From Candidatus Micrarchaeota archaeon (GTDB taxonomy: Archaea; B1Sed10-29; JAJRYS01): DNA of 40,576 nt. Made by a program: the position numbers and the translations under genes. The stretch is taken from positions 1 through 40,576 of the forward strand of contig CAZXTN010000004.1 in NCBI GenBank assembly GCA_964643685.1, given 5' to 3'. The notes under the pieces were generated by a model, which did no database searches, was not told the origin of the DNA, and worked only from the letters and a program-made list of their open reading frames with translations. How positions within the stretch are numbered: the first letter of the stretch is position 1; every line of letters begins with the position of its first letter. This document shows positions 709-40,575 of this stretch, in pieces.

Positions 709-822
709 GCGCTCGTTGTCTAGTGGTTATGATGGTAGATTGCCAATCTATCGGCCCGGGTTCAATTTTGCGCTAAAGTTCTTTCAACGAACTTTTCGCA
801 AGCGAAAATCCCGGCGAGCGCA
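709..822 (+). tRNA. tRNA-Gly(GCC) with T-loop (59/60) intron 767-808
   Basis: Acceptor GCGCTCG/CGAGCGC-A; anticodon arm GTAGA-TTGCCAA-TCTAT (GCC 742-744); T-stem CCGGG/CCCGG interrupted by a 42-nt hairpin. Confidence 0.92.
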
Positions 823-946
823 TTTAAAACAAGATGAAGGCAATTAAGAATTATAAGATGAAAAATGAGCACTTCAGCAAAGCTGAATGTGGTCACATTA
901 AATGCAATTTTTGTTAAAAATTGCCGATGATCCCGGCGAGCGCATT
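808..946 (+). mobile_element. tRNA-Gly(GCC) 3'-end duplication cassette
   Basis: 17-bp direct repeat ATCCCGGCGAGCGCATT at 808-824 and 930-946 encloses 105 bp with hairpins 866-895 and 904-924. Mobility is inferred. Confidence 0.6.
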
Positions 947-1033
947 CTGTTTCTAATTTTCTGTTAATTTAGTTTCAGCTTTCTAAACATTATATAAACC
1001 AAAAAAGACACAACATTAATCAGTGAAAGCAAA

Positions 1034-2302
1034 ATGATTGACATAAAAATAGTCAGGGAAAAACCAGAAGAAGTTAAAAAAATGCTTGAAAAAAGACACT
1101 CCAATTACCCCCTAGACAAGTTAATAAAAGCAGACAAAAAATGGAGGGAATTAAAAACAAAACTTGAAAACAAAAAGCATGAAAAAAACAAAGTAAGTCA
1201 AGAAATAGCTGAAACGAAGTCACAAGAACAAATACAGCAAATGAAAAAACTAAAAGAAGAAATCAAGCAAACAGAACAAGAAATAGATGCAGTGAAAAAA
1301 GAATTAGACAAGCTTATTTTAGCATGCCCAGCAATGCTTGATGAAACAGTGCCAGAAGGAAAAGATGAACAAGACAATGTAGAAATAAGAAAATGGGGAG
1401 AGCCGAAACAATTCAACTTTGAATTAAAAAACCATGCTGAATTAATAGAAGAACTGAACATTGGAAACTTTGAAAAAGCAGCTCAAGCAAGTGGAAGAGG
1501 ATTCAACTACTTATTCAATGACTTGGCTTTACTTGACTTAGCTCTTCAAAAATTCGCAATTGACTTCCTCATGAAAAAAGGGCACAGTTTAGTCACTCCT
1601 CCTCTAATGCTTAACAAAAAAGCATACGAAGGAATCGTTGACATGGAAGACTTTGAAAACGTCATGTACAAAATACAAGACGAAAACAATTACTTAATAG
1701 CAACAGCAGAACACCCATTAATAGCATTGTTCGCAAATGAAGTAATCCCAGAAGAACAACTCCCAATAAAACTTGTTGGAGTAAGCCCTGCTTTCAGAAA
1801 AGAAATAGGGGCACATGGAGTAGACACAAGAGGACTGTTCAGAATGCATCAATTCAACAAAGTAGAACAAATCATCCTAAGCAAGCCAGAAGACTCAAAA
1901 AAATACTTAGAAGAACTGCACGCAAACGCAGAAGAACTATACAAAGCACTTGAAATTCCATTCAGAACAATTGAAATCTGCGCAGGAGACTTGTCAATAA
2001 AAAATGCAAAACAATATGACATAGAAGCATGGTTCCCAAGGCAAAAGCAATACAAAGAAGTTGGAAGCAGTTCAAACTGCGTGGACTTCCAATCAAGAGC
2101 ACTTAACATAAAATATGGCAAAAGAGGAGGAAACAAAGAATATGTCCATACGCTCAACGCAACTGGAATCGCAACAAGCAGAGCACTCGTAGCGATACTT
2201 GAAAACAACCAGCAAGAAGACTGTTCAATAATAATACCAAAAGTGTTGGTTCCTTACATGAATGGCAAAACAAAAATACTTAAAAACAAAGAAATACTAT
2301 AA
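1034..2302 (+). CDS. serS: seryl-tRNA synthetase
   Basis: N-terminal coiled-coil arm; LIATAEHPL, FRKEIGAHG..RGLFRMHQFNKVEQ, SSSNCVDFQSR, HTLNAT motifs. Confidence 0.98.
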   Translation: MIDIKIVREKPEEVKKMLEKRHSNYPLDKLIKADKKWRELKTKLENKKHEKNKVSQEIAETKSQEQIQQMKKLKEEIKQTEQEIDAVKKELDKLILACPAMLDETVPEGKDEQDNVEIRKWGEPKQFNFELKNHAELIEELNIGNFEKAAQASGRGFNYLFNDLALLDLALQKFAIDFLMKKGHSLVTPPLMLNKKAYEGIVDMEDFENVMYKIQDENNYLIATAEHPLIALFANEVIPEEQLPIKLVGVSPAFRKEIGAHGVDTRGLFRMHQFNKVEQIILSKPEDSKKYLEELHANAEELYKALEIPFRTIEICAGDLSIKNAKQYDIEAWFPRQKQYKEVGSSSNCVDFQSRALNIKYGKRGGNKEYVHTLNATGIATSRALVAILENNQQEDCSIIIPKVLVPYMNGKTKILKNKEIL

Positions 2303-2321
2303 AACAACGCAACAACAACAC

Positions 2322-2444
2322 GGGCCCGTAGCTCAGTCAAAGCTCCACTTCTTATTGATTAAAAAAATGAGGAAGAGCTTCTGAAATGGTCAGAGCGTCG
2401 GACTCTTAATCCGAGTGCCGGGGGTTCGAATCCCCTCGGGCCCG
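2322..2444 (+). tRNA. tRNA-Lys(CTT) with D-loop intron (17/17a) 2339-2386
   Basis: Acceptor GGGCCCG/CGGGCCC-G; TCGGA-CTCTTAA-TCCGA; GGTTCGAATCC. Junction TCAG/CTGA helix with TC|A and AA|T bulges and outer helix AAGCTC/GAGCTT. Confidence 0.93.
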
Positions 2445-2457
2445 TTTACACAAAAAA

Positions 2458-2483
2458 GACCACTAAACGAAGCGCACGTGATC
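2458..2483 (+). repeat. GACCAC-type hairpin downstream of tRNA-Lys
   Basis: GACCAC-TAAACGAAGCGCAC-GTGATC; related copies at 98-126, 866-895 and 34043-34070. Confidence 0.7.
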
Positions 2484-2511
2484 GATTGATACAAACTTTT
2501 AACTGATTTTT

Positions 2512-4071
2512 ATGGCTGATGAAAAAAAAGCACTGCATTGGGCAGACAAGTATGCGGAGCAAATCATTGCACGCAATCCTGAAAAAAAAGAATACATAGT
2601 GGAAAGTGGAATCACTCCTTCTGGAACAGTGCATGCTGGAAACTTCAGAGAAACAATGACGCAAGAACTCGTCTACAAAGCGCTTTTAGACAAAGGAGTA
2701 AAAGCAAGGTACATTTATTATTGGGACGATTACGACAGGTTCAGGAAAGTGCCTAAAGGAGTTCCAAAAGAATGGGAGCAGTATATAGGGATGCCTTTGT
2801 TTAAAGTTCCTGACCCACATGGTTGTCATGATAATTATGCAGAACACCACGAAGCGCCAGTGCAACAAGAAAACGAAGCAGTAGGCATACACGTAGAGTA
2901 CTTGCATTCTTCAAAAGAGTATCCGAAAGGAATCTATGCTGACTACTTAAAAACAGCGTTAGAGAATAATGATAAAATAAGAGAAATTTTAAACAAGTTC
3001 AGAAAAGAACCTTTGCCTGAAAACTGGCTGTGCGTGGAGGTTTACTGTGAAAAATGCTGGAGGGATAAGACAACAGCTAAGTATGAGGGCGGTTATGAAG
3101 TTAGTTATAAATGCAATTACTGTGGGCATGAAGGAAGAATAAATTTTCAAAAAGGAGGAAGGGTTAAGCTTAGATGGAGAAGCGACTGGCCAATGAGATG
3201 GGCTTATTACGGAGTTGATTTTGAGTCATCTGGAAAAGAGCATAAAGCAGCAGGAGGAAGCTGGGATACTGGAATTAGGATAATGAAAGAAGTTTTCAAA
3301 AAAGAGCCACCAATAGGCCCAATGTATGAATTTATTTATTTCAAGGGACAGAAAGAAAAAATGAGTTCCTCAACAGGAAATGTCATAAAAGTAAGGCAGT
3401 TGTTAGAAGTTTATGAACCAGAAGTAGTCAGGTACTTGTATACTGCAAAAATAAACAAGTCATTTGAAATTTCATTTGATGCTGACCTATTAAATGATTA
3501 TAACTACTTTGACAAAGCAAAAAAAATGTACTACGGCAAAATAGAAGAAAAAGATGAAAATGAAATAAGAAAATATGAATTAGCTAAACTTACAGATGAG
3601 TACGTTGACTTGCCTCAATTTTCAGTATGCGTCAACGCAATACAAATAGCACTCGGAGACATTGAAAAGGCGAGGGAGATTTTGAAAAAAACAGGGCACC
3701 CTTACGAGCATGCAGATAAGAGGTTACAGTTAGCTTGGAACTGGGTTCAGAAATACGCTCCTGAACAATTCAAGTTCACAGTTAAACAGAATTTGAAAGA
3801 AATAGCAGAAGACATAAGATTGAATACGTGGAGCGATGAAATGAAAGAACTGCTGAAAGAAACAGCTGATGAAATTGAAAAAGGAGCAACAGGAGAGGAA
3901 CTTCAGCAGTTTATTTTCAACACTGCAAAAGCAAAAGAGATACCTGTAAAAATTGCTTTCATGACATTTTATCAATTGTTACTTGGAAAAAGCAGGGGGC
4001 CGAAACTAGGTCCTTTCCTAGCTTCTCTTGACAAGGATTTTGCAGTGAAAAGATTAAGGTTAGAAGCATGA
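2512..4071 (+). CDS. lysS: lysyl-tRNA synthetase, class I
   Basis: HWAD..A, SGITPSGTVHAGNFRE (HIGH-like), DWPMRW, KMSSS, RGPKLG. Confidence 0.97.
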   Translation: MADEKKALHWADKYAEQIIARNPEKKEYIVESGITPSGTVHAGNFRETMTQELVYKALLDKGVKARYIYYWDDYDRFRKVPKGVPKEWEQYIGMPLFKVPDPHGCHDNYAEHHEAPVQQENEAVGIHVEYLHSSKEYPKGIYADYLKTALENNDKIREILNKFRKEPLPENWLCVEVYCEKCWRDKTTAKYEGGYEVSYKCNYCGHEGRINFQKGGRVKLRWRSDWPMRWAYYGVDFESSGKEHKAAGGSWDTGIRIMKEVFKKEPPIGPMYEFIYFKGQKEKMSSSTGNVIKVRQLLEVYEPEVVRYLYTAKINKSFEISFDADLLNDYNYFDKAKKMYYGKIEEKDENEIRKYELAKLTDEYVDLPQFSVCVNAIQIALGDIEKAREILKKTGHPYEHADKRLQLAWNWVQKYAPEQFKFTVKQNLKEIAEDIRLNTWSDEMKELLKETADEIEKGATGEELQQFIFNTAKAKEIPVKIAFMTFYQLLLGKSRGPKLGPFLASLDKDFAVKRLRLEA

Positions 4072-4658
4072 CTTTTAAGCAATTAGAAAAGCAAGTGAAG
4101 GAAAAATTTGAGAAGGAAAAAAGAGGTTCAGCGCATGACTTCATGCACATTCAAAGAGTCATGAAAAACGCTGAGTTAATTGGAAGAGAAGAAAAAGCAA
4201 ATTTGAAAATTTTAAAATACTCTGCTTTACTGCATGATTATGTGAGAGAAACAGCGCATGAATTGAAAGGAAACCATGCTCTTGAATCAAGCAAAAAAGC
4301 ACGCAAACTACTTCTAAAAGAAAAATTGACAAAAAAAGAAATTAATGAAATCTGCCACGCAATAGAAGCACACAGCAGGCGTTCAGAAGTAAAACCAGAG
4401 ACACTTGAAGCAAAAGTTTTATTTGACGCTGACAAGCTTGATGCAGCTGGTTACTATGGTTTTTTAAGATGGATAGCTCAAGCAAGCGAATTAAACTGGA
4501 GCATAGACAAAGCAATTCAATTTTACTTGAAAGAAGCTGAAAAAACAATTAAAAAAGGATTCTATACTAAAACAGGAACAAAACTAATTAAAAAAAGGTC
4601 AACTGAAGCAATAAAATTAGCCAAGCAGATTCAAAAACAATTGAAAAAAGAACAGTAA
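4068..4658 (+). CDS. HD-domain phosphohydrolase
   Basis: AHDFMHIQRV, ALLHD, AIEAHS, DADKLDA. Confidence 0.9.
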   Translation: MTFKQLEKQVKEKFEKEKRGSAHDFMHIQRVMKNAELIGREEKANLKILKYSALLHDYVRETAHELKGNHALESSKKARKLLLKEKLTKKEINEICHAIEAHSRRSEVKPETLEAKVLFDADKLDAAGYYGFLRWIAQASELNWSIDKAIQFYLKEAEKTIKKGFYTKTGTKLIKKRSTEAIKLAKQIQKQLKKEQ

Positions 4659-4777
4659 GCAAAAGCAATACAAACAAAAAACAAAAAAATAATCGACTTG
4701 TGACGTGGAAAAGGTTAAATAAAGTCTAAATTATAATTTTTTTAACTATTTTAAAAAATTCAGGATGTGATTGTTAA

Positions 4778-5866
4778 ATGAATGCAATTGAAAAATTGAA
4801 ACAGCACAAGCAAGAAGTTGACAAAAGACTAAGCAAGTATTTTCATGAAAAGCTAGAGCATGCAGTAATGGAATCAGAAGCAATTGAATATATAAAAGAG
4901 TTATCAGAGCATATTAATGAATATAACTTAAGAGGAGGAAAGAGAATACGCCCTGCATTCGTAGTTGAAGGATACAGAGCAGTAGGGGGAAAAGACATCG
5001 ATTCTATTTATGATGCTGCCCTTGCAGTTGAAACAATGGAAGGTTATTTGTTAATACATGATGATGTGATGGACAGGGATGATTTAAGAAGAGGAGGAAA
5101 AACAGTACACAGGATATACAAAGAGTGGTTTGAAGAGAAACTTAAAGGAATGCCAGAAGAAGCAGAACATTTTGGTAATTCAATAGCAATAGATGCAGGG
5201 GACATAGTTGAAACATTCGGACCTGAATTAATAGCCTTGTCAAACTTTCCAGCTGAAAGAAAAATTGAAGCAATAAAAAAATATTCAAAAATAGCAAGGT
5301 ACACTGGTTATGGACAAGCACTTGATTTAATAGTTGAAAAACTTCCAGTTGAACAGGTAACAGAAAAGCATGTGCTGACAGTTCATAAATTCAAAACAAG
5401 CCTTTACACAATAACAGGCCCTCTGCAAATAGGAGTAATACTAGCAGGAGGCACAAAAGAACAACAGGAGCTAATGGAACAATATGGAGAAAATGTAGGC
5501 ATAGCATTCCAAATACAAGATGATATACTTGGAATTTATGCTGATGAAAAAAAATTAGGAAAACCAGTTGGAAGCGACTTAAAAGAAGGAAAAAGAACAC
5601 TTCTAATACTAAAAGCTCTTGAAAAAGGAACACCAGAACAAAATGAAAAATTAAAATCATTCCTAGGAAAGCAAGACATAACACCAGAAGACGTCAAAGA
5701 AGCGCAGAAAATAATTGAAGAAACAGGCTCTCTAGAATACTCGAAAAATCTTGCAATAGAATATGCTAAAAAAGGAATTTCTGCAATTGAAAACGCTGAA
5801 TTAGAACAAGAAGGAAAAGAATACCTGCTTGGAATAGCAGATTACCTGATAAATAGAGAATTTTAA
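4778..5866 (+). CDS. idsA: geranylgeranyl diphosphate synthase (polyprenyl synthase)
   Basis: GGKRIRP, LIHDDVMDRDDLRRG (FARM), GQALD, FQIQDD, GKPVGSDLKEGK. Confidence 0.95.
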   Translation: MNAIEKLKQHKQEVDKRLSKYFHEKLEHAVMESEAIEYIKELSEHINEYNLRGGKRIRPAFVVEGYRAVGGKDIDSIYDAALAVETMEGYLLIHDDVMDRDDLRRGGKTVHRIYKEWFEEKLKGMPEEAEHFGNSIAIDAGDIVETFGPELIALSNFPAERKIEAIKKYSKIARYTGYGQALDLIVEKLPVEQVTEKHVLTVHKFKTSLYTITGPLQIGVILAGGTKEQQELMEQYGENVGIAFQIQDDILGIYADEKKLGKPVGSDLKEGKRTLLILKALEKGTPEQNEKLKSFLGKQDITPEDVKEAQKIIEETGSLEYSKNLAIEYAKKGISAIENAELEQEGKEYLLGIADYLINREF

Positions 5867-5884
5867 AAGAGGCAAAAGGATCAA

Positions 5885-6673
5885 ATGAAAAGTTTAAAAA
5901 TACTTAAGATAGGCGGCAGCATAATCACTGATAGGAAAAGCAGCACACCTAAAGTGAATTATAAAGCACTTAAAAGAATTGCGAGAGAAGTAAGCAGTTA
6001 TAAAGGCGATTTAATTTTGATTCATGGAGCAGGGAGCTACGGGCACCAGATAGTGAAAAAAACAGGAATACACAAGGGCATTAAAAACAAAAAGCAAGTG
6101 CTGGCTTTTGCTGAAACTCAAAAACTTCAAAATGAGCTAAATGCAATAGTATGCAATGAATTAATAAAAGCAGGAGTTCCCGCCATTCCAGTGCAAGCAT
6201 CTGCAAGCGCGATCATGAGCAAAGGAAAAATGAAAAAAATGAACCATGAAATTGTGAAAAAAATGCTTGAAATTGGGCTTGTTCCTGTGCTTTATGGCGT
6301 GCCAGCTTATGATGAGAGCCAAAAATGTTCCATTTTATCAGGAGATGAAATTGCACCTTACCTTGCATTAAAACTAGGTGCTGAGAAAGTGATACATGCA
6401 ACAGATGTTGATGGGGTTTTCACAGCAGATCCTAAAAAAGATAAAAATGCAAAACTTATTCCTCTAATAACTGAAAAAAATTTGAAAGAAGTGAAAAAAG
6501 CAATAACAGGCTCGACTAATATAGATGTAACTGGGGGCATGATGAAAAAAATAAACGAGCTTATGAAATTAAGAAAAAAAGGAGTGGAAACAATTTTAAT
6601 TAATGCCAATGAAAAAGGCAGGGTAAGAAAGGCATTAGCAAACAAAAAAGTAATTGGCACCATTGTGAAATAA
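5885..6673 (+). CDS. ipk: isopentenyl phosphate kinase
   Basis: Amino-acid-kinase fold LKIGGSIIT, HGAGSYGH, SGDE, DVTGGM; sits between idsA and fni. Confidence 0.93.
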   Translation: MKSLKILKIGGSIITDRKSSTPKVNYKALKRIAREVSSYKGDLILIHGAGSYGHQIVKKTGIHKGIKNKKQVLAFAETQKLQNELNAIVCNELIKAGVPAIPVQASASAIMSKGKMKKMNHEIVKKMLEIGLVPVLYGVPAYDESQKCSILSGDEIAPYLALKLGAEKVIHATDVDGVFTADPKKDKNAKLIPLITEKNLKEVKKAITGSTNIDVTGGMMKKINELMKLRKKGVETILINANEKGRVRKALANKKVIGTIVK

Positions 6674-6689
6674 ATAGTCGGTTGGAAAA

Positions 6690-7727
6690 ATGGCAAATGA
6701 AAAAACGCTTACAAGAAAAGAAGAGCATTTAAGAATATGCTTAGAAGAAAAAGTTGAAACAAGTTCAACATTATTTGAAAGCGTGGTTCTTAAACATGAA
6801 GCTTTGCCTGAATTTGATTATTATAAAATTGACACTTCTGTTTCTTTCTTAGGCAAAAAATTCAAGTTCCCTTTGATGATAGCTGCGTGCACAGGAGGAA
6901 TACCAAAAGCAGAGGAGATAAACAGGGCTTTTGCAGAAGCAGCGCAGGAAAAAGGAATTGGAATGGGTTTCGGTTCACAGAGGGCAATGATTGAAAACCC
7001 TGAGAAAATAAATTCATATAAAGCAAGGGACATAGCTCCAGACATCTTCTTAGCTGGAAACATTGGAATAAGCCAGATAAAGCAGTTTAAAACAACCCAG
7101 ATTCAAGAAGCAATGGATGCAATAGAAGCAGATGCCCTGTGCGTGCACTTGAATCCTGCACAGGAATTCTTTCAAAAAGATGATGAAAGAGATGTTGACT
7201 TTTCAAACACATACGAAGCACTCGCAAACTTATGCGACACGCTAAGCATACCAGTTATTGCAAAAGAAGTTGGTAATGGCATATCCAAGGAGACTAGCTT
7301 GAAGCTTAAGCAAGCTGGAGTAAAAGCAATTGATGTCGGAGGCGCAGGTGGGACGAGCTGGGTTGTTGTAGACAGCCTGCGTTCAGGCAAAAACGCAGAC
7401 GAGTTTAAAAATTGGGGTATTCCAACAGCAGCTTCAATACTAGAAGCAAAAGAAGCTGAACTGCCTTTAATTGCAACAGGAGGAGTGAGAACAGGACTTG
7501 ATATTGCAAAATCAATAGCATTAGGGGCAGATTTGACAGGAATCGCTCTTCCTTTCTTGAAAAAATACCATGATAATGGTGTTAAGGGGTTAGTTGAGTA
7601 TATGGATCAGTTAGAAGATGAATTGAAAGCAGCAATGTTTTTCACAGGTTCTGAAAAGGTAAGGGAATTGAAAAAAGCAAATTATGTCCTGTTAGGGAAA
7701 TTAAGAGATTGGCAGATGCAGATTTGA
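6690..7727 (+). CDS. fni: type 2 isopentenyl-diphosphate delta-isomerase
   Basis: RKEEH, TGG, GSQR, HLNPAQE, KEVGNG, GAGGTSW. Confidence 0.96.
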   Translation: MANEKTLTRKEEHLRICLEEKVETSSTLFESVVLKHEALPEFDYYKIDTSVSFLGKKFKFPLMIAACTGGIPKAEEINRAFAEAAQEKGIGMGFGSQRAMIENPEKINSYKARDIAPDIFLAGNIGISQIKQFKTTQIQEAMDAIEADALCVHLNPAQEFFQKDDERDVDFSNTYEALANLCDTLSIPVIAKEVGNGISKETSLKLKQAGVKAIDVGGAGGTSWVVVDSLRSGKNADEFKNWGIPTAASILEAKEAELPLIATGGVRTGLDIAKSIALGADLTGIALPFLKKYHDNGVKGLVEYMDQLEDELKAAMFFTGSEKVRELKKANYVLLGKLRDWQMQI

Positions 7728-7757
7728 TGCTAAAACAATAAACACAATTATCGCTTT

Positions 7758-7816
7758 TTGTCGTGACAAGGTTTTTAAATAAACGTTTTAATAATTTATG
7801 TTACTTTTAAGGAGGT
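7758..7816 (+). promoter_or_regulatory. putative promoter with upstream palindrome, plus Shine-Dalgarno site
   Basis: Palindrome TTGTC-GT-GACAA 7758-7769; TATA-like TTTAAATA 7774-7781; GGAGGT 7811-7816. Confidence 0.5.
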
Positions 7817-7824
7817 AAATGTAA

Positions 7825-7875
7825 ATGGGTGTTGGACTTTTTGACGAGTCTCCTTTGACAGATCCAGATGAATAA
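7825..7875 (+). CDS. putative 16-aa peptide MGVGLFDESPLTDPDE
   Basis: GGAGGT 8 nt upstream of the ATG; first ORF after a TATA-like box; too short for the ORF track. Confidence 0.5.
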   Translation: MGVGLFDESPLTDPDE

Positions 7876-7891
7876 AAAGGGAGAGGGAGAC

Positions 7892-8206
7892 ATGAAAATT
7901 TTTAAAGGAGAGACAGCGTGCCCTGGTTTTGTCAGGGCGCGTCTTGTCCATAGTTTAGATGAAGAGGGAATTATTGTTTTGGACAAGCTTGATGCTAATG
8001 TTTTTAATTTAAACAAAATTAAAGGACTAGTTATTCGTAACGGAGGAGTTTTGAGTCACGGAGCTGTTTTGGCTCGTGAATTTAATATCCCTTGTGTTGT
8101 TGGTGTTGACGCGCCTAGTTTGGAAAAAGAGGTAATGGTTGAATTAAATGCGGACAAAGGAGAAGTTAGGTTTTTTGAAAAAGGAGAAGAGGGACACTTC
8201 AATTAA
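7892..8206 (+). CDS. stand-alone PEP-utilizing enzyme mobile (phosphohistidine swivel) domain
   Basis: KGETACPG and GGVLSHGAVLAREFNIPCVVG signature; alternative start at 7868. Confidence 0.88.
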   Translation: MKIFKGETACPGFVRARLVHSLDEEGIIVLDKLDANVFNLNKIKGLVIRNGGVLSHGAVLAREFNIPCVVGVDAPSLEKEVMVELNADKGEVRFFEKGEEGHFN

Positions 8207-32613: not shown

Positions 32614-32617
32614 TTGC

Positions 32618-32881: not shown

Positions 32882-33207
32882 TTTCTTTCCTTCTTTTTTT
32901 CACCTGCTCCTATCACTGTTTGGTTTCCGCAATGCAAGCAAGTTATTTTAAACAAGGGTTTTTTCGGAATCTTCCTTATTTTCATGTTCTCTGAAGTGAA
33001 GTAAGTGAAGCAGTTCCTGCAGAACCTGTGCTTGTGCTTGCCTAGCCTTACTTTGTATTTCCTGCTTATTTTAAAAGCTAGTTCAGAGTACCTTCTGCTT
33101 CTTTCAGGATGGCTTAGCTTGTTTTCTTCAGCCAAGCTCATTAACTCATCTATTCTTTCTTGGGCGTATTTTTTCACCCAGTTTGGTTTTTTCTTTTTTT
33201 TAGCCAT
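32878..33207 (-). CDS. rnp4: ribonuclease P protein subunit Rpp21
   Basis: AQERIDEL, RRY, FCRNC...CLHCG zinc ribbon. Confidence 0.92.
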   Translation of the reverse strand: MAKKKKKPNWVKKYAQERIDELMSLAEENKLSHPERSRRYSELAFKISRKYKVRLGKHKHRFCRNCFTYFTSENMKIRKIPKKPLFKITCLHCGNQTVIGAGEKKKERK

Positions 33208-33225
33208 AAAAATCAAGAAGAAGCA

Positions 33226-33377
33226 AATAAAGTGCGCCGACGGGGACCTTCAGCAAACTTTGAAAAAAGTCAATCGCAATCTGCGATTGCTCAAACCTTT
33301 GCTAACGCAAAGTTTGCATCAAACCCAACGGCATAAAGCCGTAAACCCTCAACGCGAATAAAGTGCGCCGACGGGGA
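33226..33377 (-). mobile_element. tRNA-Gly(TCC) 3'-end duplication cassette
   Basis: 21-bp direct repeat AATAAAGTGCGCCGACGGGGA at 33226-33246 and 33357-33377 encloses 110 bp of hairpins. Mobility is inferred. Confidence 0.6.
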
Positions 33378-33467
33378 TTCGAACCCCGGCCATTGGCTTT
33401 TTTCACGCAACAGCGAACAAACCGAAGCGCTTGGAAGGCCAAGATCATACCACTAGACTATCGGCGC
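33364..33467 (-). tRNA. tRNA-Gly(TCC) with canonical 37/38 intron 33399-33431
   Basis: Minus strand GCGCCGATAGTCTAGTGGTATGATC-TTGGC-CTTCCA|33 nt|A-GCCAA..CGGGGTTCGAATCCCCG-TCGGCGC-A. Confidence 0.93.
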
Positions 33468-33477
33468 ATTTTAAATT

Positions 33478-33933
33478 TTACCTGAACCTTTTTAATTTCT
33501 TTGCTTTTTCTTCCTCTTCTTTTTTTCTTTCAAGGTAATTAATAGTTGTTATTATTGTATCTGCTGTTTGGAAAGGAGCTTCTCTTGCATCCCTCTCGCT
33601 TACTCTTATTACCTCAGCTCCTCTTTTTTCTATCTCTTCTCTTCTTTTTTTATCATACTCTTGTCTTGAATCATGGCTTCTTCCTTCTACTTCTATAACA
33701 TATGTCCTTCCATTTTTGGTTATGACAATATCAGTTACATAAGGACCTACATTTACCTGCTTGTAATGTTTTATCCCTTTTTTTTCAAGTGCTTTTGATA
33801 ACCTCTTTTCTCCTTCTGTAACTATTGCTTTTCCTCTTTTTTCTGCATTAATCCTTCTTCTCTTTTCTTCTTCTCTTCTTCTCCATTCATCTTCTTTCTG
33901 TTGTTTTTTCCTAAGCCATGCTGGTTTTGACAT
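33478..33933 (-). CDS. DUF559 / Vsr-like endonuclease-domain protein
   Basis: TEGEKRL..L...G...Q...GPYVTD...IEVEG.SH...YD..R...G.EVIR pattern. Confidence 0.85.
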   Translation of the reverse strand: MSKPAWLRKKQQKEDEWRRREEEKRRRINAEKRGKAIVTEGEKRLSKALEKKGIKHYKQVNVGPYVTDIVITKNGRTYVIEVEGRSHDSRQEYDKKRREEIEKRGAEVIRVSERDAREAPFQTADTIITTINYLERKKEEEEKAKKLKRFR

Positions 33934-33961
33934 TTTTTCACTTCTTTTAAATTTTAATCAA

Positions 33962-34095
33962 AGTGGGTCTGCCCAGATCTTCACCGAACCGCGGGGGACT
34001 TGGCTGTCCCCCTCAGTTTTAGGGAATTCCGGATCCCCCTGCTGACCACATGCGCTTTGCTTAGTGGTCATTTTTTTGAGTGGGTCTGCCCAGAT
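33962..34095 (-). mobile_element. tRNA-Val(TAC) 3'-end duplication cassette
   Basis: 17-bp direct repeat AGTGGGTCTGCCCAGAT at 33962-33978 and 34079-34095 encloses 100 GC-rich bp with three hairpins. Mobility is inferred. Confidence 0.6.
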
Positions 34096-34223
34096 TTTCT
34101 CTTGCAAGAGAAAAGCTCAAACGAGCTTAACTCATTTGCAGATTTGAACTGGGGATCTTCGCCTTTCCCACAGCTTTTGCAGCTGTTGTAAGGGCGACGT
34201 CCTAACCACTAGACCACAGACCC
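34081..34223 (-). tRNA. tRNA-Val(TAC) with two introns (37/38: 34165-34186; 59/60: 34095-34142)
   Basis: Minus strand GGGTCTG..TCGCC-CTTACA|22 nt|A-GGCGA..CCCAG-TTCAAA|48 nt|T-CTGGG-CAGACCC-A. Confidence 0.92.
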
Positions 34224-34253
34224 AATTAAAAAAGCCCATAGGGCTTTGGTTTT

Positions 34254-35531
34254 TTAACGCGTGTAAATCTTCAATCCTTTGCTGTCTATCTTGCTTTGTT
34301 TTATGCCTACAATTGTTTTTATACCTGCTTTTTCAGCTGTGTCAACAATTTTCTGCGTTATTATGCCGTCAAAGACAAGAGTCTCTGCTTTTTTAGCTTT
34401 TTCCATTTCTTTTATTAAATCTTTTACTCCTGTTTTTATTAAAACTTTTTTGTCCTTGTCTAATAAAATTCCTTCAAGAGTTCCTTCAAGTTCTTTAAGC
34501 TCGTTTAAGAAAGGATTCAGTTCTGCCTGCGGTTTCTCGTAACTTTTTCTCTCATAACTTCTTCCTGAATTTCTTGAAGTTCTTGTGCTTTGACTGTTGT
34601 ATCTGCTGTGGCTGTTTCTGCCGTTTCCCCTGTATTCATGATTGTTGTGGTTGTTTGAGTGGTTGTTTGTTGAGCTGTGTTCTTTTGGAGTGTATCCTTT
34701 GAATGTTTTGCTCATGAACTGCTCGAAAGGCAGCTTGTTTCTAAGCGCTTTCAGTATCTCTTTTTTTGTAAGTTCTTCAACTTCTTTTCCGTCAGGTGCT
34801 TTTGCTACATAATCAACTTCTGCGCAGTCTGCCAGTTGCTTTATTATGAGGTCTCCGCCTCTGTCTCCGTCTACGAATACTGTGACTGTCTTTTTCTTAG
34901 ATAGTTCCTGCACTGTTTTTGGAATTACTTTTCCCTGCAAGCATATTACATTTCTTATGTCTGCTTTAAGCATTGTCAGCACGTCTGCTCTTCCTTCAAC
35001 TACTATTATGTGGTCTGCTTCATCTATGTTCGGCCCTGCTGCTAGTTTTTCAGGCCCGTATTGCTGTACGTCTGCTAGTTTTACTTTGTCTCTGACTAGT
35101 TCTGATATTTCTTTTCTTTCTGGTAGCATGTCTGCCATGACTCCTTTTAGGAGCTGTTTTGCTCTGTCTACTACCTGGTTTCTTTTCATTGTTCTTGTGT
35201 CTTCTATTTTTTTGACTTTTATGTGGGCTTCGCATGGCCCTACTCTGTCTACTGTTTCAAGGGCTGCTGCTAGTATTGCTGTTTCTACCCTGTCGAGTGA
35301 TGAAGGCAGAATTATTTCGCCTACTGATTTTCCGTGTTTTGTTTCTATGTTTGCTTCTATTCTGCCTATTCTTCCTGATTTTTGAAGTTCTCTTAGGTCC
35401 AGCTCGTCTCCTAGGAGTCCTTCTGTTTGTCCGAATATTGCTCCTACTACGTCTGGTTTTTCAACTATTCCGTCGATTGTAACGTCAGCGTAAACTACGT
35501 ATTTGACTGTGTCTATGTATGTTTTTCCCAT
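34254..35531 (-). CDS. dnaG: archaeal DnaG (exosome-associated TOPRIM protein)
   Basis: DVVGAIFGQTEGLLG, GRIGRI, VVEGRADV, DGDRGG, FDGIITQ. Confidence 0.97.
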   Translation of the reverse strand: MGKTYIDTVKYVVYADVTIDGIVEKPDVVGAIFGQTEGLLGDELDLRELQKSGRIGRIEANIETKHGKSVGEIILPSSLDRVETAILAAALETVDRVGPCEAHIKVKKIEDTRTMKRNQVVDRAKQLLKGVMADMLPERKEISELVRDKVKLADVQQYGPEKLAAGPNIDEADHIIVVEGRADVLTMLKADIRNVICLQGKVIPKTVQELSKKKTVTVFVDGDRGGDLIIKQLADCAEVDYVAKAPDGKEVEELTKKEILKALRNKLPFEQFMSKTFKGYTPKEHSSTNNHSNNHNNHEYRGNGRNSHSRYNSQSTRTSRNSGRSYERKSYEKPQAELNPFLNELKELEGTLEGILLDKDKKVLIKTGVKDLIKEMEKAKKAETLVFDGIITQKIVDTAEKAGIKTIVGIKQSKIDSKGLKIYTR

Positions 35532-35549
35532 TTTGGGTTACACCTCTTT

Positions 35550-35921
35550 TTATTTTGTTTTTTCATATTGTTTTTTGATTTTGTTGTATCGAGGCACTAG
35601 TTCTTCAAAAATCCGAATTTTCATCAACTGCTTTATCTTTTTTCTGTAGTAGGTGTTTGTTTTTACACCTTGGTTGTGATAAAGTTCTTCTAGTCTTTTC
35701 AGGATTAATTCTCCTGTCCTGTCATAGTCAGTCAGGAGGATTACTTCTTTTTCTTTTGTTTCTTCAACTGTTTTTTGAAGTGATGAGTTTTGTATTAATC
35801 GGATATTTTGAATGTTTAGTGCTTCTAAATTTTGCTTGTCTTTTTTTCCTTCAACAAGTTTTGGGTTTTTGTCTTCTCTTAATTGTTTCAGGATTTTTTC
35901 AATTTCTTGTATTCTGTTCAT
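35550..35921 (-). CDS. small TOPRIM-domain protein
   Basis: LVEGKKD...VILLTDYDRTGE; upstream of dnaG. Confidence 0.88.
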   Translation of the reverse strand: MNRIQEIEKILKQLREDKNPKLVEGKKDKQNLEALNIQNIRLIQNSSLQKTVEETKEKEVILLTDYDRTGELILKRLEELYHNQGVKTNTYYRKKIKQLMKIRIFEELVPRYNKIKKQYEKTK

Positions 35922-36162
35922 TTTTTTGAATCATTTCAAGCAGTTTTTCTTCGTTTTCAATGAACAAGGTTTTTTCTTTGCTTGTTTTTCCTTTGATTAT
36001 TTCAACCTTGCTTTTGAGTATTTTTTTAAGCATTGAAGTGATTTCTTTGTTTGCTTTTCCTTCTGTTGCTGGTGATTTTGTTTCTATTACCAGCTTGTTT
36101 TTTGACATGCTTGTGATTTTGAATTGTTTTTTGTTTGGCTTTACTTCTATTTTTATTTGCAT
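35899..36162 (-). CDS. DUF167 (YggU-like) protein
   Basis: VKPN, SPATEGKANKE, IIKGKTSKEK. Confidence 0.88.
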   Translation of the reverse strand: MQIKIEVKPNKKQFKITSMSKNKLVIETKSPATEGKANKEITSMLKKILKSKVEIIKGKTSKEKTLFIENEEKLLEMIQKNEQNTRN

Positions 36163-36182
36163 TTTGAAAGCCTTTTTTTGAG

Positions 36183-36240
36183 TGTTAGGTGCAGTGTTGT
36201 AAGCACTTCATGCTTTTCAGTGCTTTTCACCCCTGCACCG
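36183..36240 (-). ncRNA. box H/ACA guide sRNA (single hairpin with K-loop)
   Basis: Minus strand GGTGCAG-GGGTGAA-AAGCACT-GA-AAAGCAT-GA-AGTGCTT-ACAACA-CTGCACC-TA-ACA: lower stem, pocket, upper stem, tandem G.A K-loop, 3' ACA; TTTTAAA ~25 nt upstream (36265-36271). Confidence 0.82.
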
Positions 36241-36275
36241 TGATATTGTTTTTAATTAATTGCCTTTAAAAGCTT

Positions 36276-36674
36276 TTAGGTTATTATCATGGAATTGTCG
36301 TAATCTTTGTTTTGTTCTATCTCCTTTATTTCCAAGTATTTTTTCAAAGTAGTGTTTTTTGCTTTTTTATCCAAGCTTATTTTATCATCTGTAATTTCCT
36401 GTGCGTAGACTGGTGTTCTTTGGAAGGAGTAGGCGATTAAGGGAGTGGCTTTGTATTCTCTGGCTTGTTTTATTATTTCTTTTAATCCTGTTATGTATGT
36501 CTTGTCTTTTGTTGTTTTTTTGCATTGCACGAATAGGTTTTCGCCGTTTTTTGTAGCGTAGATGTCAGTGGGTGTTTTTGAAGCTGGGCTTCTGACTACG
36601 AACCATCCTTTTTCTTCCAGTATTTTTTTTGTCTTGTGTTCCAAGGCATAGCCTCTTTTGTAATTAGTGACCAT
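36276..36674 (-). CDS. hjc: archaeal Holliday junction resolvase Hjc-like
   Basis: YKRGYALE...LEEKGWFVVRSPAS..PTDIYA...FVQCK. Confidence 0.8.
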   Translation of the reverse strand: MVTNYKRGYALEHKTKKILEEKGWFVVRSPASKTPTDIYATKNGENLFVQCKKTTKDKTYITGLKEIIKQAREYKATPLIAYSFQRTPVYAQEITDDKISLDKKAKNTTLKKYLEIKEIEQNKDYDNSMIIT

Positions 36675-36692
36675 TTTTCAAAAACCTTCTTT

Positions 36693-37046
36693 TTAGTCAA
36701 CTAGTTTCAAGTCCCCTGTTATGTTGTCTAGTTCTTCTTCTTCCCATGGGCCTATTCCAAGGCAGGTTATTGTGCCTGGTTCTAAGTGTGTTTTGCCAGC
36801 GTCTATTATGAGCTTGTAGGGGATTTCGCTTGGTATTTTCTGCATTAATTCCAGCAGTTCTTTTTTGTTTTCAATGTAAAGCACGACTTTTTTTGCTCCT
36901 GTTTTTATCCACTGTTTTGTTTTGGTTGGGTATAAGTCGATTGCTTTCCTGTATGCTTCTAAGCTGGCGTGCGCTGCTTGCGCGCTCATTTTGCCTTTTG
37001 TGAGTTTTAAGTCTTTTCTGACAATTATTACTTGTTTGAGTTCCAT
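36693..37046 (-). CDS. pth2: peptidyl-tRNA hydrolase Pth2
   Basis: KQVIIVRKDL..GKMSAQAAHA, KKVVL, DAGKT, TCLGIGP. Confidence 0.96.
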   Translation of the reverse strand: MELKQVIIVRKDLKLTKGKMSAQAAHASLEAYRKAIDLYPTKTKQWIKTGAKKVVLYIENKKELLELMQKIPSEIPYKLIIDAGKTHLEPGTITCLGIGPWEEEELDNITGDLKLVD

Positions 37047-37147
37047 TAATTTATTCAACTCTTTTGTTGTTAATTAATGTTTAGAGTTAGGTTTATAAAT
37101 GAATTGATTTACAATTATTAACACTCATTTTAAAGGTGATTGTTTAA

Positions 37148-37357
37148 ATGTTAACTCGTTTTGAAATGACAAGGATTGTTTCTGCAAGGGCGTTGCAGCT
37201 TTCTTTAGGGGCTCCTGCGCTTGTTAAAATTTCAAAAAATGTTTTAAGGGCAGAGGATGTTGCAAACATTGAGTTGGAGAAGAAGGTTCTTCCAATTTCT
37301 GTTATAAGGGAAATGCCTGATGGCTCTGTTAAGGTTTTTGATATAAACAAGGAATGA
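37148..37357 (+). CDS. rpoK: RNA polymerase subunit K (Rpo6)
   Basis: LTRFEMTRIVSARALQLSLGAP. Confidence 0.95.
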   Translation: MLTRFEMTRIVSARALQLSLGAPALVKISKNVLRAEDVANIELEKKVLPISVIREMPDGSVKVFDINKE

Positions 37358-37378
37358 ATTTTAAAGGAGATTGGTTGA

Positions 37379-37570
37379 ATGGGTAAATTGTCTAACAAGG
37401 TTTTGAGAAGAAAAGCAGCTGAAATTTATGAATTGTATTCTGATAAGATTTCAACTGATTTTGAAAACAATAAGAGGTTTTTAGACAGTTTAGGTGTTTT
37501 TTCAAGCAAGACAAGCAGGAACGTAGTTGCAGGCTTGCTTGTTAAAATGGCTTCTGAAAAAATACTCTGA
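37379..37570 (+). CDS. rps17e: 30S ribosomal protein S17e
   Basis: MGK..., DFENNK, SKTSRNVVAG. Confidence 0.92.
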   Translation: MGKLSNKVLRRKAAEIYELYSDKISTDFENNKRFLDSLGVFSSKTSRNVVAGLLVKMASEKIL

Positions 37571-37578
37571 GCTTTTTT

Positions 37579-39879
37579 TTAATTTTCTGTGACAGGTTCT
37601 GTAATCACTTTTGTTTCTTCTTCTGTTTCTTTATTTCTTTCTAATTTGTAAATGTTTCTAGTTGCTGCTTTTTCAAGTCCTGTTTCATGGGTAATTAGGA
37701 AAATCTGCTCTACCAAGGAAGGCAAATGTTTTTTCAGGGTCTTTGCAAGTTCTTCAACTGCTTTTTTATCAAGGTTGTGTGTTGGTTCGTCAAGCACTAG
37801 CCATGATAAGTTTTTTGTCAACACTAATGAAAAAGCTATTCTTAAGGCAAGGGAAGCAGAGCTTCTTTCTCCACCGCTTGTTATGCCCTCTGCATTTACC
37901 CATTTGTTGTTCACTGTCCTTAATTTGAGCACGTAGTCTCCTGATTCGTCAACGTCTAATTTTAATTCAACATAGTCTCCGTAAGGGTAAATTCTTTCCC
38001 ATATGTCAGTTAAGGCAGCGTTTGTTTCTTCAATGAACTCTTCTCTTAATTTTGTTTGCGTTGCATTCAGCACGTTTTGAAGAGATTGGAATGACTCTAT
38101 CTGCTTTTTTAAGTATGCTGATTGCATGGCGTTTATTTCAGCTTCTTTTTCAAGCTTTTTTAAGTTTTCAAGCCTTGCTTTTTTTTCTTTTAGTATCTCT
38201 TCAATGCTTTTTATTTTCTGATGAGAAACTAGTATTTCAGATTCAAGGTTTTTTAATTCTTCAAATGCTTTTCTTTCCTCTTTTTCGCTGTAGTTGATTT
38301 TTTCTTTTTTTTCCTGGAGTGATTTGATTGAAGAGTTCAGTTCATCAATTTCTTTTTTCAGTTTGAAGTAATCTAACTGTTTTTTCAACGACTGCTCTTT
38401 TTCAACAAGTTCCTCAATGCTTTTTTCAATCTTAAGCTCCTTTAATTTCTCTTCAGCTTGTTTAAACCTGTTCTCTGAATCTTTAAGTGCTTCCTCTGCT
38501 TTTGTTTTCTCTTCTTCATACAACTTTTTCTCGTTTGCTTTTCTTTCTTCTTTTTCAATTTGCTCTATTTCATTGTTAAGTTCTTGGATTTCTTTTTTTA
38601 TCTTCTCCTTTTTCTCCTGCAGTTTCTTTATCTCTCCTTCTATTGTTTTTATCCTCTCTTTTTTTACTGAGACAACTTCGTTCTTTTTTTTAGGAGTTAA
38701 TTTGGCTTCGCATACAGGGCATTTGTCATTTTCACCGACTTGATGTATTGTTTCTTCAACTTCGCTTATGCTTGTTTTTTTAGATGAAATTTCCCCTTCT
38801 ATCTTGTTTAGTTCTTCTTGGTAGTTTTTTACCGCTTGCTTTTTTTCTTCTTTTAATTTGCTGATGTTTTCAGGTAATAATATCTGGGCTATTTTTAAGG
38901 ACAATTCTTCTATCCTTTTTTTATTCAAGTTGATTTCTGCTTCAGCCTGTTCCTTTTGCCTTTCAATTTTTTCTTTCTCTTCTTTTTTTGCTTTTACTTC
39001 GAGTTTTTCTTTTAGAACTTCGTCATATTCTTTTTTAATCTCTTCTTCTGTTTTCAAAGGAAGTTGTTTTTCTTTAAACTGTTTTTCAACATACTCTTTT
39101 TTTCCCAGCAATTGCTTCAGGGAGTCAGTGATTTTTTCATATTCTTCTTTTTTCTTTTTTTCTTCATCGTGCCTTTTTTCTGCTTCTTTTTTCACTTCTT
39201 CAAGTTGCTCCTGCTGCTTTTTTTCATTTTCATGTTCTTCTTTTTTTTCTGTTAGCTCTTTTTCAAGTTCAGGTATCTGCTTTGTTTCCTCTGATGCGGT
39301 TGTTCTCTTTTCTTTTTCTTTCACTCTTTCTTTCAGCCTGTTTGTTATCTGGCTTAAGGTTTTTTTTGCTTTTTCAAATTTTGAAATTTGCAGGAGCTCG
39401 TCTATTTTTTGCTTTCTTTCTGATTTTGTTATTTGCAGGAAGTAGTCTATGTTGTTTTGCTCTGCATAAACTGCTCTTGAATATAATTCGTAGTTTACTT
39501 GAAGTATTCTTGTCACTTCTTCTGTTACTCTTTGGCTCTGCGGCCCGGCAATTATTAACCCGTTTTTTCTAAGTTCTGCTGTAGCTGTTTTTCCAAGCTC
39601 TATTTCTCTTTTAATTTCATAGTTTTCACCATTGATGTCAAAGAAAAGAGTTACTTTTGCTTTTTTTTCCTGAACTGGCTTGTTTTTAATCACTTCATCT
39701 AATTTGACTTTTCTTGCTTTAAGTGAAGGGAAGGTGCCGTAGAAAGCGAAGCAGATTGCGTCCATTAAGCTTGTTTTACCTGAGCCCATTTGCCCGATGA
39801 TGACGTTTGTTCCTTTAGTGAATTCAATTTCACTGCGTTTATGCGAACGCCAGTTTTCAAGAATTAGTTTTTGAATCAT
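37579..39879 (-). CDS. rad50: Rad50/SbcC-like SMC ATPase
   Basis: LENWRSH, GQMGSGKTS, Q-loop AEQ, coiled coil with CPVC zinc hook, SGGE, LDEPT, ITH. Confidence 0.9.
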   Translation of the reverse strand: MIQKLILENWRSHKRSEIEFTKGTNVIIGQMGSGKTSLMDAICFAFYGTFPSLKARKVKLDEVIKNKPVQEKKAKVTLFFDINGENYEIKREIELGKTATAELRKNGLIIAGPQSQRVTEEVTRILQVNYELYSRAVYAEQNNIDYFLQITKSERKQKIDELLQISKFEKAKKTLSQITNRLKERVKEKEKRTTASEETKQIPELEKELTEKKEEHENEKKQQEQLEEVKKEAEKRHDEEKKKKEEYEKITDSLKQLLGKKEYVEKQFKEKQLPLKTEEEIKKEYDEVLKEKLEVKAKKEEKEKIERQKEQAEAEINLNKKRIEELSLKIAQILLPENISKLKEEKKQAVKNYQEELNKIEGEISSKKTSISEVEETIHQVGENDKCPVCEAKLTPKKKNEVVSVKKERIKTIEGEIKKLQEKKEKIKKEIQELNNEIEQIEKEERKANEKKLYEEEKTKAEEALKDSENRFKQAEEKLKELKIEKSIEELVEKEQSLKKQLDYFKLKKEIDELNSSIKSLQEKKEKINYSEKEERKAFEELKNLESEILVSHQKIKSIEEILKEKKARLENLKKLEKEAEINAMQSAYLKKQIESFQSLQNVLNATQTKLREEFIEETNAALTDIWERIYPYGDYVELKLDVDESGDYVLKLRTVNNKWVNAEGITSGGERSSASLALRIAFSLVLTKNLSWLVLDEPTHNLDKKAVEELAKTLKKHLPSLVEQIFLITHETGLEKAATRNIYKLERNKETEEETKVITEPVTEN

Positions 39880-39928
39880 GGTTTTATTTTATGTGTGTTG
39901 TATTATAAAAAAACAAGAGGAGGGGTTT

Positions 39929-40183
39929 TTATGAAATGAGTGTAACTCCTTCAGATTCCATTTCTTTTATTCCAGGTGTTTTTCTTATTTCTTTTTCTAT
40001 TTCTTCTGGATTGTCTTTTTTGTCGTCCATTACTACTCCTATTTTGATTACTTCTAATCCAAAGGCAATTGGTTCTTTTTTAATTGATTTTATTCTTTCG
40101 TTTTTCTGAAGCTCTTCCATTAATTCATTTATGTCTTTGCCTTCTTCTGGGTAGATCTTGTATACTGCCATTGCCATTCCCAT
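39929..40183 (-). CDS. ef1b: translation elongation factor 1-beta
   Basis: KIYPE, EPIAFGL; ATG at 40183 follows SD GGAGGT (40192-40197). Confidence 0.92.
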   Translation of the reverse strand: MGMAMAVYKIYPEEGKDINELMEELQKNERIKSIKKEPIAFGLEVIKIGVVMDDKKDNPEEIEKEIRKTPGIKEMESEGVTLIS

Positions 40184-40205
40184 TGAGCATAACCTCCGAT
40201 TTGTT

Positions 40206-40361
40206 TCAAGGACCTGTGAATCCGCATTCTTCACAAGTGTAAGGTAATACATTTTCTCTGCATTTTTTGCATCTGACTATTGTTGTTTTTCCGCATGAAG
40301 GGCATTTGAATTCGACGTAGTCGTCAGTTACTTCCCTTTTGCATGATGAGCATATTTTCAT
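40206..40361 (-). CDS. small Zn-ribbon protein (DUF1610-like), 51 aa, missing from the ORF track
   Basis: MKICSSCKREVTDDYVEFKCPSCGKTTIVRCKKCRENVLPYTCEECGFTGP; four CxxC; conserved position upstream of aEF1B; SD GGAGTGA. Confidence 0.92.
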   Translation of the reverse strand: MKICSSCKREVTDDYVEFKCPSCGKTTIVRCKKCRENVLPYTCEECGFTGP

Positions 40362-40456
40362 TTTGCATTCACTCCTTTTATTGTCTAAAGCCTAAAAGTA
40401 TTATATTTTAGTAAAAATAACCCTATATATACCTTGTGATGTATTTTTTTTAAGAT

Positions 40457-40575
40457 GCCCCTGTAGTTTAGTCTGGATAGAATGTGGGCTTGCGGAGCCT
40501 AAGACCGGAGTTCAAATTTGCGTTAAAAAGTTCTTCAATTGAACTTTTTCGCAAGCGAAATTCTCCGCAGGGGCG
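40457..40575 (+). tRNA. tRNA-Arg(GCG) with T-loop (59/60) intron 40517-40561
   Basis: Acceptor GCCCCTG/CAGGGGC-G; TGGGC-TTGCGGA-GCCTA; CGGAG-TTCAAA|45 nt|T-CTCCG. Confidence 0.92.

Follow-up and report, generated by a model that had tools for sequence, protein, structure and literature searches.

The window analysed here, which comprises bases 1 to 40,576 of contig C4 in an archaeal genome of about 0.7 Mb (695,104 bases in 12 contigs, 92% complete), carries two tRNA genes, for Gly(GCC) and Arg(GCG), whose T-loops are each interrupted by a short intron of the same family, termed family A. This family has exactly four copies in the genome, each in a different tRNA gene, and it is probable that these paralogous copies arose by the spread of one intron to new tRNA genes within this lineage. 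A preliminary description of the window had proposed that the intron moved between unrelated tRNAs, and this core idea is borne out by the four paralogous copies and by orthologous sites in related genomes that are mostly free of the intron. The host is a Woesearchaeota-type DPANN archaeon with no close sequenced relative in the collection compared, because the nearest matches to its seryl-tRNA synthetase come from Woesearchaeota, Nanoarchaeia and Pacearchaeota genomes, the best of them with 67% identity. The two genes are composed as follows:

709 to 766 (+): 5' exon of tRNA-Gly(GCC), with acceptor GCGCTCG, anticodon loop TTGCCAA, T-stem CCGGG at 756-760 and T-loop nucleotides 54-59 at 761-766
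767 to 808 (+): family A intron of 42 nucleotides at T-loop position 59/60 of tRNA-Gly(GCC); 84.3 bits with covariance model R1; -21.3 kcal/mol, z = -3.6
809 to 822 (+): 3' exon of tRNA-Gly(GCC), with T60, T-stem CCCGG, acceptor CGAGCGC and discriminator A
40457 to 40516 (+): 5' exon of tRNA-Arg(GCG), with acceptor GCCCCTG, anticodon loop TTGCGGA and T-stem CGGAG at 40506-40510
40517 to 40561 (+): family A intron of 45 nucleotides at T-loop position 59/60 of tRNA-Arg(GCG); 83.7 bits with model R1; -20.6 kcal/mol, z = -3.9
40562 to 40575 (+): 3' exon of tRNA-Arg(GCG), with T60, CTCCG, CAGGGGC and discriminator G, followed by an artefactual N gap

Both introns lie where the preliminary description had placed them, and each interrupts the T-loop. 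The exons of tRNA-Gly(GCC) were recognized by reading of the sequence, by a scan for T-arm and acceptor pairing and by an ARAGORN call after removal of the intron. The contexts are CCGGG TTCAA[T] / intron / [A]T CCCGG CGAGCGC A for the Gly gene and CGGAG TTCAA[A] / intron / [T]T CTCCG CAGGGGC G for the Arg gene; the junctions were placed by the bulge-helix-bulge rule, and that of the Gly copy can slide by one nucleotide. Splicing in silico restores a standard cloverleaf, and ARAGORN then calls tRNA-Gly(gcc) and tRNA-Arg(gcg). It was found that the two introns are identical in 38 of 46 aligned columns (83%) with three indels, a value reached by none of 2000 shuffles (best shuffle 31), while the mature tRNAs agree in 46 of 76 columns (61%); the contrast between alike introns and differing exons that had been pointed out earlier is thus real. 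The introns are homologous, as claimed, but the term 'near-identical' goes too far for 83% and three indels. The apical stem has 7 base pairs (bp) in the Gly copy and 9 bp in the Arg copy, with two additional A on one strand and one additional T on the other, so that the described extension of the stem holds but not a strictly paired gain of A and T.

The Gly intron is unchanged in independent Logan contigs of the runs X1, X2 and X4, one of which represents a different sample. Since these contigs cover the copy without differences, misassembly, which the preliminary description had raised as a concern, does not account for it. Just past the end of the window lies a gap of 100 N (C4:40577-40676) with the same 55 nucleotides on either side, and several contig ends overlap by 55 nucleotides; the gap is an assembly artefact. 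From the 55 nucleotides repeated across it, it follows that tRNA-Arg(GCG) is a single intact gene. A separate artefact of the assembly is contig C8, which duplicates C1:75876-101373 at 99.95% identity.

The comparison of the intron with the rest of the genome, as had been suggested, was run as a motif search and with model R1, for which the copies themselves had served as the basis. Besides the two copies in the window, family A is present in tRNA-Ser(GGA) at C1:146434 and in tRNA-Arg(CCU) at C6:15407. The four copies are 42-45 nucleotides long, all lie at T-loop position 59/60 and score 82-84 bits, the next match in the genome reaching 50.5 bits. Their pairwise identity is 76-84% in a star-like pattern, corresponding to differences of 16-24%. 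The anticodons of Ser(GGA) and Arg(CCU) were read by eye; ARAGORN calls neither gene even after T-loop splicing, and both carry further non-canonical introns. The next-best match is the T-loop intron of tRNA-Thr(GGU), followed by those of three other tRNAs at 26-34 bits, and together these introns form a looser superfamily, a further member of which lies in the window:

34087 to 34156 (-): T-loop intron of family C, in the tRNA read as Val(UAC); 33.8 bits with model R1 and 62-67% identity with family A

Across the genome, tRNA candidates were collected by a scan for a T-stem, a TTCRA loop and a 7-bp acceptor pairing, from which 15 hits in coding sequence were rejected by hand. This gave 43 candidates, 21 with an insertion at 59/60 and 22 without; once the T-loop introns are removed, ARAGORN recognizes 34 of these candidates but not one of the 15 rejected hits. 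Of the 21 introns, seven belong to the superfamily and four to a family B, four form two pairs and six stand alone, and every one of the 21 ends in NGAA or CGGG followed by three nucleotides. As they fall into multi-copy groups, paralogous introns are a general trait of this genome. Family B behaves as family A does, in that alike copies sit in different tRNAs of one genome:

C1:112165, C1:32602 (-), C6:17127 and C9:6147 (-): family B introns of 111-115 nucleotides, 83-92% identical, in four other tRNAs

In family B, the base opposite nucleotide 57 matches the host: where the T-loop is TTCA the intron has TGAA, and where it is TTCG the intron has CGAA or CGGG. Shorter relatives, two in number and 80-84 nucleotides long, are present as well. 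Judged by eye, the D-loop introns at C6:15420-15470, C1:239270-239320 and window positions 2340-2385 are built like the T-loop superfamily (TCTGCG, hairpin, GAGCTTTCAGC, GCAG, CTGAAA), with a 3' end complementary not to the T-loop but to the D-loop exon. The likeness hints at one intron stock that was retargeted to two sites.

In folding models that include the T-arms, each of the four family A copies is shown to fold with its exons into a relaxed bulge-helix-bulge. The fold common to them begins with the T-stem, followed by a 3-nucleotide bulge in the 3' strand (AAU or AUU), a UUC:GAA helix with an A.C mismatch, a bulge in the 5' strand, a 6-bp intron helix UUUGCG:CGCAAG and the apical hairpin; the four minimum-free-energy folds have z-scores of -2.2 to -5.0. 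The mismatch between CGAA and TTCA noted earlier is indeed present in both hosts of the window. The bulge in the 5' strand has 2-3 nucleotides, and 2 if A57 and the C are counted as a fourth central pair. A strict bulge-helix-bulge consists of two 3-nucleotide bulges separated by a 4-bp helix; with a mismatch in the central helix and a 5' bulge of 2-3 nucleotides, the family departs from this form and fits a relaxed variant. In an alignment of 26 distinct superfamily sequences from the host genome and relatives, an alignment that was fitted to the model and is therefore biased toward the structure, 94% of the cells are paired, 17 of 21 pairs have changed on both sides and UUC:GAA is invariant; none of 500 shuffles reached these values and slid controls were far off. 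The genome encodes a single EndA, in an open reading frame (ORF) of 170 amino acids with a PF01974 match of 115.8 bits, and an RtcB with a PF01139 match of 559.7 bits. By the established archaeal pathway, EndA would cut in the two bulges and RtcB would join the exons.

Other identities were considered for the intron and rejected. No Rfam family matches the introns, and no Rfam intron family reached its gathering score or, on four loci, E <= 1. A self-splicing group I or group II intron was discarded, since no Rfam ribozyme core is present and 42-45 nucleotides are far too short. The intron of euryarchaeal tRNA-Trp carries a C/D box small RNA; a small RNA of this kind was also discarded, as the C box (RUGAUGA) and D box (CUGA) are absent from the four family A sequences.

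When model R1 was applied to 100 relatives, matches with E <= 0.1 were obtained in seven of them (eight of 101 genomes with the host's own), the best foreign score being 44.4 bits; family A has no close counterpart in these relatives by this model. The foreign matches, too, are T-loop introns belonging to this superfamily, and several alike copies per genome are again found in different tRNAs. Orthologous genes were compared in four genomes of the same family (G001-G004), which are distant relatives. The tRNA-Arg(GCG) gene lacks a T-loop intron in three of these genomes (G001, G002 and G003), and the one that it carries in G004 is unrelated; that for Gly(GCC) has none beside serS in G003 and an unrelated one in G004; and that for Ser(GGA) has none in G003 and G004. 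Fixation at orthologous sites, named in the preliminary description as the finding that would speak for vertical descent, is therefore not observed: three of four Arg(GCG), one of two Gly(GCC) and both Ser(GGA) orthologues lack a T-loop intron. These sequence comparisons support a lineage-specific spread of the intron between tRNAs. For Arg(CCU), both orthologues compared (G001 and G004) have a T-loop intron of the superfamily. Alone among the four hosts in having orthologues with a related T-loop intron, tRNA-Arg(CCU) is most likely the older resident site. On the simplest reading, it would have held such an intron before the lineage split, and a descendant copy would later have entered the three other genes, the spread having come after the split from the nearest sampled relatives. 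The step that moved the intron was probably an event at the DNA level.

Several observations weigh against this account. The nearest genome is distant, with a seryl-tRNA synthetase identity of no more than 67%, and gain here is not fully separable from losses in the relatives; at such distances, losses on their side could have produced part of the pattern. In each genome, the Arg(CCU) intron is closer to the other introns of that genome than to its orthologues, a pattern that also fits replacement or gene conversion. As for enzymes of mobility, no reverse transcriptase and no tyrosine integrase was found in the 92%-complete genome, and no TnpB above the cut-off, the only trace being a sub-threshold zinc ribbon of 23.6 bits. 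The central helix of the relaxed motif consists of 3 bp and a mismatch, and an alpha4-type EndA would have to cleave it. Finally, the seven runs listed for this sequence are all DNA contigs and none RNA, and splicing of the introns is a prediction from the established pathway.

A different history would be that the four tRNAs already had old T-loop introns and that gene conversion, as in concerted evolution, made these alike, with no movement at all. T-loop introns are common in this genome (21 of 43 candidates) and also occur in relatives, G004 has unrelated ones in both Arg(GCG) and Gly(GCC), and per genome the copies are closer to one another than to orthologous introns, all of which would suit this explanation. 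It is nevertheless considered unlikely: three of the four hosts are free of any T-loop intron in most orthologues, by the counts given above, and copies that are only 76-84% alike and star-like are not what continuing conversion predicts.

Still less probable is the proposal of the preliminary description that the intron came from a donor with a TTCG T-loop, is spreading to this day and has another copy in the fragment at position 1. As regards the donor, the base opposite nucleotide 57 usually matches the host (A:T in nine and G:C in four of the 21 introns), four of the five A.C mismatches come from family A, the mismatch being hence unusual in this genome, and family B shows that matching of base to host does occur. 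However, family A is absent from all TTCG hosts; hosts of this type in which CGAA forms a perfect helix do exist, as had been asked, but the introns in them belong to other families. In Arg(CCU), the likely older host, the T-loop reads TTCA in this genome and in both relatives. Of 25 superfamily sequences, only 11 have position 57 paired, and relatives show A.C as well. The C of CGAA may pair instead with the G of an intron-internal UUUUCG, in a 3' hairpin that recurs across the superfamily. This hairpin, UUUUCNN-loop-NNGAAAA, occupies the last 20-25 nucleotides of superfamily introns (e.g. window 793-808) and competes with the splice-competent fold; it recurs in several genomes with different NN and is weak in family A (about -2.5 kcal/mol). 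The notion of recent and continuing movement does not agree with copies that are 16-24% divergent and star-like. An intron-less Gly allele was looked for as well, and no joint skipping 767-808 was present in the contigs of four runs, a result of little weight as contigs drop rare variants.

The fragment at position 1 had been linked to the family by its CGAAA end. It proved to be the 3' part of another tRNA gene:

1 to 20 (+): last 5-6 nucleotides of an unassembled T-loop intron and 3' exon of tRNA-Lys(UUU), with T-stem CCCGT, acceptor CGGGCCC and discriminator G

Such an end comes with every T-loop intron and is therefore not evidence of membership. The 5' part of tRNA-Lys(UUU) ends contig C1, and the terminal TTCGAAA of that contig does not match the xTTTGCG start of family A, all four copies of which have T at the position of its last A. 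No listed public-contig piece covers window 1-22 so as to connect the end of C1 with the start of the window. A related metagenome contig (L168, 130-380) contains the whole tRNA-Lys(UUU), with an 83-nucleotide T-loop intron that is unrelated to family A (11 bits with R1 against 82-84 bits); this gene has a TTCG T-loop and the strict motif, a 4-bp UUCG:CGAA helix between two 3-nucleotide bulges, and also a D-loop intron.

That the likeness of the introns is due to convergence under the bulge-helix-bulge and T-loop pairing rules, to chance or to an assembly artefact is highly improbable: the shared GAA(A) end and the position are dictated by pairing with the T-loop UUC, and that end is common to all 21 introns, but the identity extends to TTTGCG, GAACTTTTCGCAAG and the apical stem, none of which the splice-site motif dictates, other T-loop introns under the same rules reach at most 50 bits, no shuffle attained the identity, and independent contigs carry the Gly copy.

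Many tRNA genes of this genome have a second copy of their own 3' exon 70-170 nucleotides downstream, sometimes with up to 50 nucleotides of trailer, and these second copies are directly preceded by one of two small structured elements, type 1 and type 2. No Rfam family matches the downstream elements. Their positions are:

866 to 929 (+): type-1 element, a hairpin (GAGCAC..GTGGTC) followed by a kink-turn (K-turn)-like hairpin (AATGCAATTTTTGTTAAAAATTGCCGA)
930 to 946 (+): orphan second copy of the Gly 3' exon (ATCCCGGCGAGCGCATT), 17 of 17 nucleotides identical to 808-824
C1:110304, C1:112516, C1:220447, C2:16085, C2:16523, C2:73605 and C4:33467 (-): other type-1 sites, from a motif scan
33981 to 34071 (-): type-2 three-hairpin element, R2 104.7 bits; about 33958-33980 is the second 3'-exon copy of the tRNA read as Val(UAC)
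C3:66383, C3:44350 (-), C1:166698, C9:5909 (-), C6:36396, C6:36514, C3:79720 and loci L142-L164: other type-2 sites

In the type-1 layout, the tRNA is followed by a hairpin, a K-turn-like hairpin (GATGC-stem-GCTGA), a 7-nucleotide loop-like stretch and then the 3'-exon copy, which repeats the 3' strands of that tRNA's T-stem and acceptor together with the discriminator. In the motif scan, nine of ten matches were followed within 0-7 nucleotides by a repeat of 16-34 nucleotides of upstream sequence. The K-turn (C/D-like) reading of this element, made by eye, is a candidate assignment.

The type-2 element has about 90 nucleotides in three hairpins, with 14 R2 matches in the host genome, nine in G004 and 3-9 in each of four archaea classed only as 'same domain'. 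A pattern search of IMG/VR gave two matches, both without the hairpins and thus due to chance. The element usually precedes a duplicate of the 3' end of the upstream gene. In the host genome it also flanks duplicated 3' ends of protein genes, where all differences are synonymous, and it forms part of two T-loop introns; the protein-gene duplicates behind the element cover the last 7-30 codons. Nine foreign loci were inspected. Four of them have a duplicate of the upstream tRNA 3' end behind the element, and at two the following sequence matches the upstream tRNA 3' end and trailer only in part. At the phosphoenolpyruvate synthase gene of G044, the last 30 codons are duplicated behind the element with identical amino acids and about 17 synonymous differences. 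One element lies inside a canonical tRNA-Ile intron, and two in G074 lie in frame inside ORFs, one of which encodes an archaeal D-aminoacyl-tRNA deacylase that exceeds PH0006 by about 11 residues at this point. The palindromic elements of Rickettsia are likewise short structured repeats found in intergenic regions, beside RNA genes and in frame in protein genes. The settings of the three-hairpin element are alike; it differs in being archaeal, in the 3'-end duplicate that follows it and in its presence in tRNA introns. An interpretation of the duplicates as the repeats of a diversity-generating retroelement was rejected, since no reverse transcriptase was found and the differences are synonymous changes of all kinds, not changes at adenines.

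Single-crossover or att-type integration of a small circle would produce duplicates of this kind, which connect the downstream elements with the introns. It is conceivable, though rather doubtful, that the T-loop introns are one face of small structured DNA elements that enter genes at the DNA level with a duplicate of the target's 3' end, and that family A took the same route; loss of the upstream copy would then turn such an insertion into an intron. If this were true, element insertion would provide the mechanism that has been lacking for how endonuclease-type introns are gained. The three-hairpin element may merit more attention than the intron family itself.

Further small features were observed. 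Window 446-670 (+) contains two orphan fragments resembling tRNA 5' parts, one Gly-like (GCACTCGTTGCCTAGC) and one Ser-like (GTGGTGGTCGCCTAGC), each followed by a TTTTCTTTT/AAAAGAAAA hairpin and then TTTCC(C)AAAAGAAAA. No 3' halves for them were found in the genome. The same hairpin-plus-motif module also precedes the three-hairpin element in the distant G044. Behind several tRNAs lies a four-hairpin trailer module, in which a palindromic hairpin, ATTAAACA or ATCAAACA, is followed by three hairpins; on the opposite strand, this module resembles a type-1 element abutting a tRNA 3' end:

23 to 177 (+) of the window; C6:15570-15680, C6:36610-36740, C6:17400-17590 (-) and C1:113880-114060: trailer module

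Standard tools recover few of the tRNA genes in the window. On the raw sequence, ARAGORN called none and Rfam gave two above the cut-off, neither of them Gly(GCC) or Arg(GCG), while reading of the sequence yields at least six complete tRNA genes and one 3' fragment. Three further intron-bearing genes are among them, all missed by ARAGORN and two of them recognized in part by Rfam:

264 to 430 (+): tRNA read as Phe(GAA), with two non-canonical introns
2322 to 2450 (+): tRNA read as Lys(CUU), with a D-loop intron
33364 to 33467 (-): tRNA read as Gly(UCC), with a 35-nucleotide canonical intron and a downstream 3'-exon copy

The closest known parallel is found in the Thermoproteales, for which transposed tRNA introns, i.e. 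alike short introns across isotypes, have been described (Fujishima et al. 2010, as treated in PMC4090602, PMC4033280 and PMC10714607). As far as the passages of these papers considered here go, both cases have in common alike endonuclease-type introns in different isotypes with unrelated tRNA bodies, for which a lineage-specific gain has been proposed; the mechanism of spread in the Thermoproteales is given as unknown and assumed to act at the DNA level (PMC4090602). The cases differ in the lineage and the endonuclease, a crenarchaeal (alpha-beta)2 EndA there and an alpha4-sized EndA in a Woesearchaeota-type DPANN archaeon here, and in the fact that all four copies here lie at one site, 59/60, where about half of the tRNA genes have an intron. 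For DPANN archaea, non-canonical tRNA introns and EndA enzymes of broad specificity (epsilon2 of ARMAN-2 and alpha4 types with an L3 loop) were reported by Kaneta et al. (2018, PMC5829648). The part of that report drawn on here resembles the present case in that a DPANN genome has numerous disrupted tRNA genes overlooked by standard finders, and relaxed bulge-helix-bulge motifs; it gives the proportions of gene-disruption types for one Woesearchaeota genome and contains no intron families or spread. In Caldiarchaeum subterraneum, a gain of an intron in tRNA-Thr(GGU) through integration of a mobile element was described (Sugahara et al. 2012, PMC3293823). In the excerpts of that work considered, as here, tRNA introns, orphan tRNA fragments and DNA-level insertion are linked, the orphan 3'-exon copies here standing beside small repeats; the element there measures 1.8 kb and carries a recombinase, in contrast to the 60-170 nucleotides here, for which no recombinase was found. 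The literature, paper supplements not being covered, yielded no description of the spread of a T-loop intron family in DPANN archaea. Family A is a genuine new example of transposed tRNA introns, from a lineage for which no published description was found.

For protein-spliced tRNA introns, the sole well-described case of large-scale spread to new genes is that of the Thermoproteales. The same pattern is now seen in a very different, genome-reduced lineage, with at least two multi-copy families and one favoured site. Incomplete tRNA sets from tRNAscan-SE are mentioned in a 2026 Nanobdellota preprint, and T-loop introns partly explain the incomplete sets that standard finders return for such genomes. 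The orphan 3'-exon copies beside small repeats provide a lead toward the gain or loss of introns at the DNA level.

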